A stretch of 64,000 nucleotides of DNA from a virus, in UHGV virus genome UHGV-0326994, one strand, 5' to 3'. Below are positions 59,880 to 61,735 of the stretch, piece by piece. The number at the start of each line of letters is the position of its first letter. Within the stretch, counting starts at the first letter, position 1. Position numbers and translations under genes: made by a program. The notes below the pieces were generated by a model. The model was not told where the DNA came from. It did no database searches and was given only the letters and a program-made list of their open reading frames with translations.

Positions 59880-60240
59880 AGCATAAACCAACGGGTACTC
59901 ACCAGCATCACTTAAGAGTCTTTCTAAGAGGGTTTTTAAGTGATGTCCGGTCGGGTGAGGTAGGGTTAAGTATTGTCCGGTACGGTCGGGTAAAGTACGG
60001 TACGGTAAGGTAAAGCAGGGTATGGGTAGTTAATCGGAGCTACATTAAAATTCGATTACATCACTTAAGAGTCTTTAAATTATACTCAATAAAGTATCTC
60101 ATAGGGTTTTTAAGTGATGTTTGGCAAGGCAAGGCGCGGCCAGGTGAGGTATGGTCTGGTGAGGTATGGTAAAGTCTGGGTGGATGGTAGTAGCCACGTT
60201 AAAAATCTACCAAGTTTCTAAAGAGTCTTCTGTTGAGGGT
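59880..60240 (+). repeat. two tandem copies of a composite element: inverted repeat CATCACTTAA...TTAAGTGATG, 90-nt GGT-periodic tract, hairpin ending ...CTACATTAAAAT
   Basis: GGTNNGGT periodicity (tccggtcgggtgaggtagggt...; ggccaggtgaggtatggtctggtgaggtatggt...); related pair at 61355-61690. Confidence 0.6.
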
Positions 60241-60287
60241 TCTTTACAAACAACTTAACAATCAACTAAAGTGTGGAGCTAAATGCT

Positions 60288-60875
60288 ATGAAACTGTTAA
60301 ATATCAAAATCACTGGGACTCGTCCTTTCCTGAGCCATGCAGATACTCTGTCAGACCCATTAAACCCTCTGACAAAATATCACAAGTCTCTGTCCAGTAA
60401 ACGTAAAAAGACTGACGAAGACTATGCGCTCTTAGCAGAAAGCCAACTGGTAACTTCTTGTTACTACGATGAGCAACTAGGTTTTGTTATGAACGGTGAG
60501 ATGATTGAGGCTTGTATCAAGTCTGGTGCGAAACTCAACAAACTTGGTAAGGTAATTGACCGAGCCATTATGCTGACAGATGTAGTCTTCCCAATGACTA
60601 TCAAGAACTGTCCAGCAAACCCACAAGAACTTGCTAAGAATCCAGACTTTATCTATGCTAAGTCTGTTAAGATTGGTGCAGCACGAGTTATGAGCTACCG
60701 TCCAATCTTCCGTGACTGGTCTGTAGAGTTTGGTTTGATGTTCGATGAAGAGCAAATTACCAGAGAAGAACTCATTATGGTTCTGGAAAATGCTGGTAAC
60801 CTTTGTGGTGTAGGTGATTGGCGTCCACGCTTTGGTCGTTTTTCTGTAGAAGTTATTTCAGAAGGTAACGTTTAA
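60288..60875 (+). CDS. hypothetical protein (195 aa)
   Basis: ORF track trimmed to ATG at 60288 (track start is GTG). Confidence 0.5.
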
Positions 60876-60877
60876 TT

Positions 60878-61318
60878 ATGAATACAAAAGCATTAGCAGC
60901 AAAGTTTAGTTACGGTGACACTGTATCACATTCTGAGATGGATACCTTCTTAGGTATTGTGAAGCCAACTTATCAAGGTGACATTGTTAAGTACGAAGAT
61001 GAAATGAAGGCTTATGCACTTACACGTCTAAACCGACTTGAGAAGTTTATTGAGAAGCTTCTTAAAGAAGAGAAGATTTATCTGGTTGCTTCAATGGGTG
61101 TTGGTTATCGTGTGGTTGAACCTAAGCATCAAGCAACTATTGCAAAACGTAAAATGTCTGGTAAGATTGGTCGAGCTTTAAAGCAAGCCACTCAAGCAAT
61201 TGAGAATGTGAATACTATGGCACTTAGCCACCAAGAACGTTCACGACTAATTGAACAGCAAAACCATTTAGCTGCTATGAAAGCTAACATTAACAAGCAA
61301 CGTAGAAAACCTTTCTAA
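60878..61318 (+). CDS. hypothetical protein (146 aa)
   Basis: ORF track; terminator immediately downstream. Confidence 0.5.
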   Translation: MNTKALAAKFSYGDTVSHSEMDTFLGIVKPTYQGDIVKYEDEMKAYALTRLNRLEKFIEKLLKEEKIYLVASMGVGYRVVEPKHQATIAKRKMSGKIGRALKQATQAIENVNTMALSHQERSRLIEQQNHLAAMKANINKQRRKPF

Positions 61319-61328
61319 GTTGACTAGG

Positions 61329-61353
61329 TAGCCTCTTCGGAGGCTCCTTTTTA
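61329..61353 (+). terminator. intrinsic terminator
   Basis: Hairpin GCCTCTTCGGAGGC followed by TTTTT. Confidence 0.6.
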
Positions 61354-61354
61354 A

Positions 61355-61690
61355 AAGGTCTTTAAGAGGGTCTTTTAATGAGGTTTGGTCTGGCATGGTG
61401 ATGTTTGGTAGGGTTTGGCAGGGTTCAGTCAGGTAAAGTGTGGTTTAGTAAGGTAAGGTATGGGTAGTTAGTCTCAGCTACATTAAAATGAGACTTACCT
61501 TTTTAAAAGGTCTTTAAACAGGGTCTTTTAATAAGGCTGTGCTCGGTACGGTTCGGTTGGGTCGGGTGAGGTAGGGTCGGGTTCAGTAGGGTGATGTTCG
61601 GTAAAGTATGGAAGGACGGCAGTAGCCTTATAAAAAATCTGCCAAATAAGCTATAAAATCTGTTGACAAGTCAGGTGTTATAGCTTATTT
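61355..61690 (+). repeat. second pair of GGT-rich composite elements
   Basis: ggtttggtctggcatggtgatgtttggtagggtttggcagggtt... and cggtacggttcggttgggtcgggtgaggtagggtcgggtt..., each ending in a hairpin with TAAAA. Confidence 0.6.
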
Positions 61691-61735
61691 TTATACTCAA
61701 TGTAATACAAAATTTAATATAACTTTGAGGTCATT

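Follow-up and report, generated by a model that had tools for sequence, protein, structure and literature searches.

Organization of the locus

We analyzed a 64,000-nt stretch of the virus genome UHGV-0326994 (the window, in whose coordinates positions are given unless a locus is named). Near one end of it two adjacent genes, vipr and vap1, are bracketed by four repeat-rich composite elements, two on each side, all of them intergenic and on the plus strand (Table 1). With high confidence we assign the locus to the type II VIPR (Viral Interference Programmable Repeat) systems, in the SUSP1 clade, and take it to be the means by which a Felix O1-like phage (Felixounavirus) targets an Escherichia coli satellite. 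The system itself is already known from preprints of 2026, and the locus is nearly identical to the type example.

According to the consulted parts of those preprints (bioRxiv 10.64898/2026.04.26.720920, 10.64898/2026.04.26.720927), a VIPR locus is made up of the minimal RAMP protein Vipr, an accessory vap gene and guide RNAs (vrRNAs), which have 9-16 YNNGG repeats, with GGY constant and NN hypervariable, and a conserved tail that forms a pseudoknot in the SUSP1 clade; they are encoded in long intergenic stretches on either side of vipr. In SUSP1 expression of the vrRNAs, which are about 100 nt long, has been shown, as have their co-purification with Vipr and their role in guiding transcriptional silencing. 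Cryo-electron microscopy (cryo-EM) showed each GGY flipped out and held by Vipr protomers, with the NN dinucleotide presented, and in SUSP1 reporters the effect was lost when NN was scrambled and GGY was kept. The target of the SUSP1 guides is mostly a satellite phage in E. coli, with the skipped bases falling on wobble positions.

The four elements stand out clearly from the rest of the window. The stretches 59910-60054, 60097-60195, 61343-61487 and 61486-61640 have 9-12 GGT per 90 nt, against a window mean of 1.26 (standard deviation 1.27), and no further stretch on either strand of the window reached the threshold. Open reading frames (ORFs) of at least 40 aa on the plus strand do not cover the tracts, and the sole overlap of any ORF with them is that of a 42-aa minus-strand ORF (61268-61396), which touches the first 13 nt of tract C. 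An earlier note, made from the raw letters of this DNA, had drawn attention to repeat elements flanking two genes and to a sigma70-like promoter 5' of the first pair, and we found both to be real, with tracts that are untranslated and two sides that are similar beyond base composition. In each of the 22 related loci that cover its region, the promoter, P1, could be matched with no more than four substitutions. Other details required revision. The note had put a GGT at every 5-6 nt of a 90-nt tract; the period is exactly 5 nt, without a single indel over the 12-16 repeats of any of the four tracts, and the tracts are 60-80 nt long. The recurrence of one side on the other holds for the shared architecture and less so for the tracts themselves, which are 60-73% alike, mostly through their common GGT.

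Guide units

Each element is a unit consisting of a 5' hairpin, a GGY tract at 5-nt period, a closing structure and an A-rich run. For comparison we dissected 78 such units in 23 related loci from IMG/VR, and tract statistics were taken from 59 unique tracts of relatives, comprising 795 repeats. Position 1 of the repeat is G in 75-78% of cases and A or U in about a quarter. G takes position 2 in 95-97% of repeats and a pyrimidine takes position 3 in 98-99%, and positions 4 and 5 are near random. The strictness of position 3 is explained by the way Vipr holds GGY in the published structures. Throughout the 78 units the tracts are hypervariable, whereas the modules that flank them are nearly invariant, and unit lengths vary mostly by 5-nt steps. 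The NN dinucleotides of guide A, in order, are CC CG GA AG TA AT CC AC CG AA AC AC AA AA AG AT.

The short inverted repeat of the earlier note exists as the 5' hairpin, in two types rather than one: type I (CATCACTTAA...TTAAGTGATG) belongs to units A and B and type II (TTAAAAG...CTTTTAA) to units C and D, with the motif GTCTTT...AGGGT common to both. The G-U pairs in the plus-strand hairpins favor an RNA read from that strand. The lone hairpin motif in the vipr leader is kept in all cassette-bearing loci. The 5' hairpins probably lie outside the mature vrRNA of about 100 nt reported for SUSP1, and the consulted parts of the preprints (bioRxiv 10.64898/2026.04.26.720920, 10.64898/2026.04.26.720927) neither mention them nor give a role to them or to the lone motif; they might serve in processing, stability or transcription.

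The closing hairpin and TAAAA that the same note had described are likewise present: the hairpin is stem 1 (S1) of an H-type pseudoknot, and the A-rich run is its loop 3. We derived this pseudoknot independently, and it agrees with the published description, as do the tract statistics. Four sequence types share this one topology and an A-rich loop 3, and they covary in both stems. The 78 units include 15 tail variants, in which every one of the 157 stem pairs is preserved; changes fall in loops or are compensatory, as in the second stem (S2) of type b, for which relatives have the variants TAATCGAA and TCCGATTA.

Rfam returned only tRNAs from the window at the gathering score, nothing meaningful in 59800-61750 at a permissive E of up to 10, and no match in six other tract-bearing loci.

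Table 1. Features of the VIPR locus, in window coordinates
Feature	Position	Strand	Details
Promoter P1, TTGACA-16-TATACT	59848..59875	+	11 of 12 consensus matches; directly 5' of first guide unit
Unit A 5' hairpin, type I	59906..59945	+	10-bp outer stem; GTCTTT...AGGGT in apical part
vrRNA A guide tract	59946..60025	+	16 YNNGG repeats
vrRNA A 3' tail, pseudoknot type b	60026..60058	+	S1 GTAG/CTAC, S2 TAATCGGA/TTCGATTA, loop 3 ATTAAAA
Unit B 5' hairpin, type I	60059..60119	+	21-nt insertion in apical part
vrRNA B guide tract	60120..60179	+	12 YNNGG repeats
vrRNA B 3' tail, pseudoknot type c	60180..60211	+	S1 GTGG/CCAC, S2 GGTAG/CTACC, loop 3 GTTAAAAAT
Lone 5'-hairpin motif (GAGTCTTCTGTTGAGGGTTCTTT) in vipr leader, no tract behind	60221..60245	+	
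vipr, minimal RAMP, 195 aa	60288..60875	+	PDB 36pp match
vap1, Vipr-accessory protein, 146 aa	60878..61318	+	Starts 3 nt after vipr
Terminator-like hairpin AGCCTCTTCGGAGGCT and T run, 3' of vap1	61330..61352	+	Overlaps start of unit C
Unit C 5' hairpin, type II	61350..61378	+	TTAAAAG...CTTTTAA; GGTCTTT twice
vrRNA C guide tract	61384..61463	+	16 YNNGG repeats
vrRNA C 3' tail, pseudoknot type a, then TACC and T run	61464..61499	+	S1 GTAG/CTAC, S2 AGTCTCA/TGAGACT, loop 3 ATTAAAA
Unit D 5' hairpin, type II	61502..61531	+	
vrRNA D guide tract	61537..61611	+	15 YNNGG repeats
vrRNA D 3' tail, pseudoknot type d	61612..61643	+	S1 AAGG/CCTT, S2 GGCAG/CTGCC, loop 3 ATAAAAAAT
Promoter P2, TTGACA-17-TATTTT (61663-61691), for next gene	61644..61691	+	Embedded in inverted repeat; downstream edge of locus

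Vipr and Vap1

The vipr product is identical at 189 of its 195 positions to PDB entry 36pp, 'SUSP1 Vipr protein' (E 1.9e-127). The G-loop is present, and all 13 functional residues that we checked against the cryo-EM preprint are kept (H17, K33, R39, E71, M72, K82, G87, K88, R138, C173, D177, W178 and R179). The vap1 product matched no Pfam family above threshold and is identical at 145 of 146 positions to SUSP1 AVU07_agp038, which occupies the vap1 position directly 3' of vipr. What led to Vipr was a C-terminal GDWRP motif common to the vipr product and to a tract-adjacent gene of an unrelated IMG/VR contig; such a motif beside tracts in an unrelated contig suggested that protein and RNA act as partners. 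The locus lacks a repeat-spacer array of the CRISPR kind, Vipr is its only RAMP, and comparison of the neighboring proteins with Pfam and PHROGs gave no Cas family.

Several other leads were considered by inspection only and were dropped at the PDB match. These were boxA/nut-like antitermination (GGTCTTTAA compared with GCTCTTTAA), the cold-shock-protein motif GTCTTT, RfaH ops-like sites, an anti-Shine-Dalgarno or tRNA-CCA sponge, elemental pause arrays, Chi-like and RecA-preferred sequences, T7-type primase sites and a preQ1-I-like pseudoknot.

The correspondence with SUSP1 extends beyond the 97% identity of Vipr and the 99% identity of Vap1. The order ligase, vrRNA, vipr, vap1, vrRNAs, next gene is the same, as are the YNNGG guides with pseudoknot tails, the E. 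coli satellite family that is matched and the skipping of wobble positions, and the third SUSP1 tract has a counterpart in guide C, a variant that is two repeats longer. The two loci differ in that SUSP1 belongs to the genus Suspvirus rather than Felixounavirus and has one guide upstream and three downstream, instead of two and two, and three of the four guide sequences found here are unlike the SUSP1 tracts.

The consulted parts of the preprints also allow a comparison with the Cas7 filaments of Class 1 CRISPR systems. In both, a RAMP protein with an RRM core, a G-loop and a thumb oligomerizes on a guide RNA, the thumb flips bases out at a fixed period, and a conserved handle caps a variable region. 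VIPR has a 5-nt period in which three bases are flipped and only two are read, compared with 6 nt and one flipped base in Class 1 CRISPR; moreover, VIPR skips 1 nt, is phage-encoded and operates without a repeat-spacer array, Cas1/Cas2 or a protospacer-adjacent motif (PAM).

The association of tract and protein is not confined to this group of phages. When IMG/VR was scanned for runs of eight GGTNN repeats, at least 120 stretches were returned, many of them degenerate tracts in tandem from unrelated viral contigs. In the DNA that was fetched around them, a Vipr-like ORF lies near 48 of 67 loci with degenerate tracts (GGTNN, at least eight repeats), compared with just one of 53 loci with simple pentanucleotide microsatellites. 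The tract-Vipr linkage of the preprint is thus reproduced, starting from the RNA instead of the protein.

Arrays of other designs occur in unrelated viral contigs. In two of these (L059 and L073) the tracts directly follow one another, punctuated by GGCAG, and in another (L060) the tracts alternate with a covarying hairpin module of about 45 nt. A single IMG/VR contig of 189,632 bp (loci L041-L044) holds at least eight tracts, with no Vipr-like ORF in the fetched DNA. None of these arrays matched an Rfam family.

Targets in E. coli satellites

BLAST searches of E. coli genomes with the tail and the 5' hairpin found nothing. We reached the satellites through the SUSP1 baseplate gene, the product of which is given in the preprint as 72% identical to a satellite protein. 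A chromosomal relative of this gene is present in 474 of 5,426 complete E. coli genomes. The satellite islands are about 10-12 kb long, occupy varied chromosomal sites and carry serine recombinases together with a tape-measure gene and a baseplate gene, both of which are related to the phage's own.

Guides were scored by the published NNx rule, in which NN is matched and one base is skipped after each pair. Guide A matches at 26 of 32 NN bases (L151:9688, plus strand), in frame with a 185-aa satellite gene of unknown function; guide B matches at 22 of 24 (L154:14451, minus strand), in frame with a large serine recombinase; and guide C matches at 28 of 32 (L152:10771, plus strand), in frame at codon 9 of the tape-measure gene. 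The best matches of guide D, 28 of 30, are antisense to a large serine recombinase (L156:192 and L157:6766, both on the minus strand), and their source is two IMG/VR contigs that contain an exact 22-base sub-pattern of the guide. The skipped base lies on the codon wobble position for all four guides. When the NN order was shuffled 200 times per guide, the highest scores were 24 for A, 20 for B and 24 for C, all below the observed 26, 22 and 28. This test covers A, B and C; in the first five islands guide D scored 22 of 30 and its shuffles there at most 21 of 30, and the 28 of 30 on L156 and L157 lies outside the shuffle set. Within the window, which comprises all but roughly 24 kb of the genome, the best guide score was 0.71, and no guide reached an NN match of 80% there. 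In vipr-bearing relatives, 31 of 46 unique guides reach an NN match of at least 80% in just seven satellite sequences.

One island, that of E. coli GN4751, has a 13-repeat GGYNN tract of its own in an unannotated gap (L154 5059-5123, minus strand), which fits a remark in the consulted part of the preprint that some satellites encode vrRNAs.

By near-identity to SUSP1, in which the steps up to the action of Vap1 have been shown, we suggest that the system works as follows. The intergenic regions on either side of the genes would be transcribed to give vrRNAs of about 100 nt, each comprising the repeats and the pseudoknot tail, and one Vipr protomer per repeat would assemble into a helical filament on the RNA, flipping out and holding GGY and offering the two N bases for pairing. 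Such a filament would read double-stranded DNA, skipping one base after each NN; an R-loop triplex would form and transcription would be blocked, with Vap1 boosting the silencing. The phage would in this way silence, during infection, a satellite that would otherwise parasitize it.

Several points weigh against this interpretation. The best match of guide A is only 81%, an exact 20-base sub-pattern of it has no match in IMG/VR, and the true variant of its target was not found. Expression, Vipr binding and silencing in this phage are predicted from the 97-99% identity of its components to those of SUSP1. A terminator-like hairpin separates vap1 from units C and D, neither inspection by eye nor a promoter scan found a promoter between vap1 and unit C, and transcription of the two downstream guides is presumed from SUSP1 alone. 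Finally, the sources for VIPR are themselves preprints (bioRxiv 10.64898/2026.04.26.720920, 10.64898/2026.04.26.720927).

Relatives, cassette exchange and orphan guides

Matches to the region come from 259 phage records, of which nearly all are Felix O1-like (Felixounavirus) and the best is at 93%. Parts of the elements are labeled in some records only as 'repeat_region' or 'DR_4'; neither 'DR_4' in wV8 nor the 'possible binding site of StbAB' in KhF3 provided an informative lead, and the repeats are not described in the Felix O1 genome paper.

The earlier note had taken the repeats and the enclosed genes to be one cassette, and its variable presence bears this out: vipr and vap1 are present together in 15 of 23 related Felixounavirus loci and absent from the other eight (L007, L010, L013, L015, L021, L023, L024 and L029, at about 3600-3990 from P1 to the g3 homologue). 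These eight run from P1 straight to P2 with one or two guide units whose tails are intact, as recombination between the flanking units would leave them. The cassette itself is far more conserved than its neighbors. Between 60288-61318 and SUSP1 (L150 28031-29061), DNA identity is 96% for vipr and 95% for vap1, compared with 82% for the ligase gene and 85% for the DNA polymerase gene on the flanks, and this difference in conservation suggests a recent cassette exchange between Felixounavirus and Suspvirus.

Observations of this kind speak for the function proposed in the earlier note, in which the tracts fold in a G-quadruplex-like manner and the composites, as direct repeats, either mediate cassette exchange or regulate the genes they enclose. 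Runs of GG or GGG do recur every 5 nt, the cassette comes and goes with junctions inside the repeat units, and it is better conserved than its flanks. However, a quadruplex would need the opposite of the pattern that is seen, in which position 3 is almost invariably a pyrimidine and position 1 tolerates A or U, and the published structures, in the consulted parts of the preprints, show GGY bound by protein and flipped out rather than stacked in tetrads. Folding of that kind is not needed and does not account for the pyrimidine. Neither folding nor exchange explains why NN carries target information, with in-frame matches in satellite genes. We therefore regard this explanation as very improbable. 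Exchange survives from it in the sense that loss junctions do fall inside units, recombination between them being a side effect of repetition and not the selected function, which is that of guide RNAs; and in place of gene-specific regulation, the repeats are guides bound by the product of one of the genes they enclose.

The units left behind in loci without vipr still look like guides. Canonical repeats make up 70% of their tracts, against 76% otherwise, which is a small difference in GGY. Of their 13 guides, four reach 80% or better against satellites, at least two of these 91% or more, and the 11-repeat guide of L024 has a perfect match, 22 of 22, at satellite locus L157:12007 (minus strand). 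These orphan guides may be recent relics. They may also serve in trans with the Vipr of a co-infecting phage, or be decoys that soak up the Vipr of a rival, and the 5' hairpins, with their GTCTTT...AGGGT motif, could be an element for processing or guide turnover, for which the consulted parts of the preprints give no mechanism; we put forward these two proposals jointly and only tentatively, as a rather unlikely combination.

Retention of one or two units by eight relatives without vipr could also fit a decoy of a different sort, namely a small RNA of the CsrB or TRAP-site kind that acts as a sponge for a host or phage protein binding GGU every 5 nt, with no specific targeting. Several tandem copies under a strong promoter are in keeping with this idea, and periodic triplets with 2-nt spacers recall TRAP sites. 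In the trp leaders of Bacillus, TRAP sites are, as in our tracts, conserved triplets with short spacers, and each triplet is taken up by a single subunit of an oligomeric protein. They differ in that the triplets are GAG or UAG, the spacers are 2-3 nt long and uninformative, the protein is a closed ring, and binding attenuates the RNA's own transcript without any targeting of DNA. The ToxI and phage pseudo-ToxI RNAs of type III toxin-antitoxin systems resemble our units in being phage-borne tandem pseudoknot RNAs of variable copy number that are involved in conflict between elements; unlike the units, their 36-nt repeats inhibit a toxin endoribonuclease, with neither a pentanucleotide code nor recognition of DNA. 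A sponge has no need for NN to match satellite coding sequences at 81-93% in a frame that skips wobble positions, and here the identity of the binding protein is known, its gene lying inside the locus. We give the sponge as little credence as the quadruplex.

Two observations on the relatives concern the surroundings of the locus. The record of phage warpig (MN850637; L005 and L006) starts and ends inside the guide-unit region, without the cassette, which probably reflects a break in the assembly at the repeats and not a physical genome end. L007 and 12 other related loci have, outside the window and some 4.2 kb beyond the g3 homologue on its downstream side, another stretch rich in GGT, but less so (8 per 90 nt, at about 8213-8331, minus strand).

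The broken warpig record could be taken to favor elements that act at the level of DNA, such as a replication origin that uses a transcription-activated R-loop, a repeat array for packaging or at a concatemer junction, or a hotspot of recombination rich in GT, and a G-rich non-template strand just 3' of a strong promoter and near the ligase and polymerase genes would suit such a role. Several results are at odds with it. GC skew tracks gene orientation and does not shift at the locus, pseudoknot covariation and G-U pairs point to an RNA of the plus strand, and the NN matches to satellites would be left unexplained. A genome terminus or packaging array was checked against the UAB_Phi87 paper and the record starts of related phages and was rejected, since these starts do not fit a fixed physical end here. 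Of the three alternatives to a VIPR system that we considered, this one appears to be the least likely.

At the downstream edge of the locus, the -35 element of P2 sits in the loop of a 19-nt inverted repeat that is 89% complementary and is followed by a T run (61644-61690); this repeat could be a weak terminator of the guide array, an operator, or both. At the upstream edge, a small basic ORF of 62 aa (59663-59851, plus strand; PHROG 5428) lies between the ligase gene and P1, and the DNA that holds it is present in some relatives and absent from others. Elsewhere in the window 24 tRNA genes are clustered at 591-6354 on the minus strand, as expected of a Felix O1-like phage.

Significance

VIPR is a recently reported form of RNA-guided recognition of DNA, and our locus adds no new principle to it. 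The code is non-contiguous and is read by an ancestral RAMP, and the system has been proposed to be older than CRISPR. What the locus does add is a natural example from Felixounavirus with four guides, together with a check of the 1-nt-skip rule outside the authors' own pipeline, in which all four guides were found to have in-frame targets in satellites. It also shows that a locus of this kind can be recognized by a reader from raw sequence alone. The remaining interest lies in the guide units without vipr, in the conserved 5' hairpins, and in the presence of near-identical cassettes in two genera of phages.

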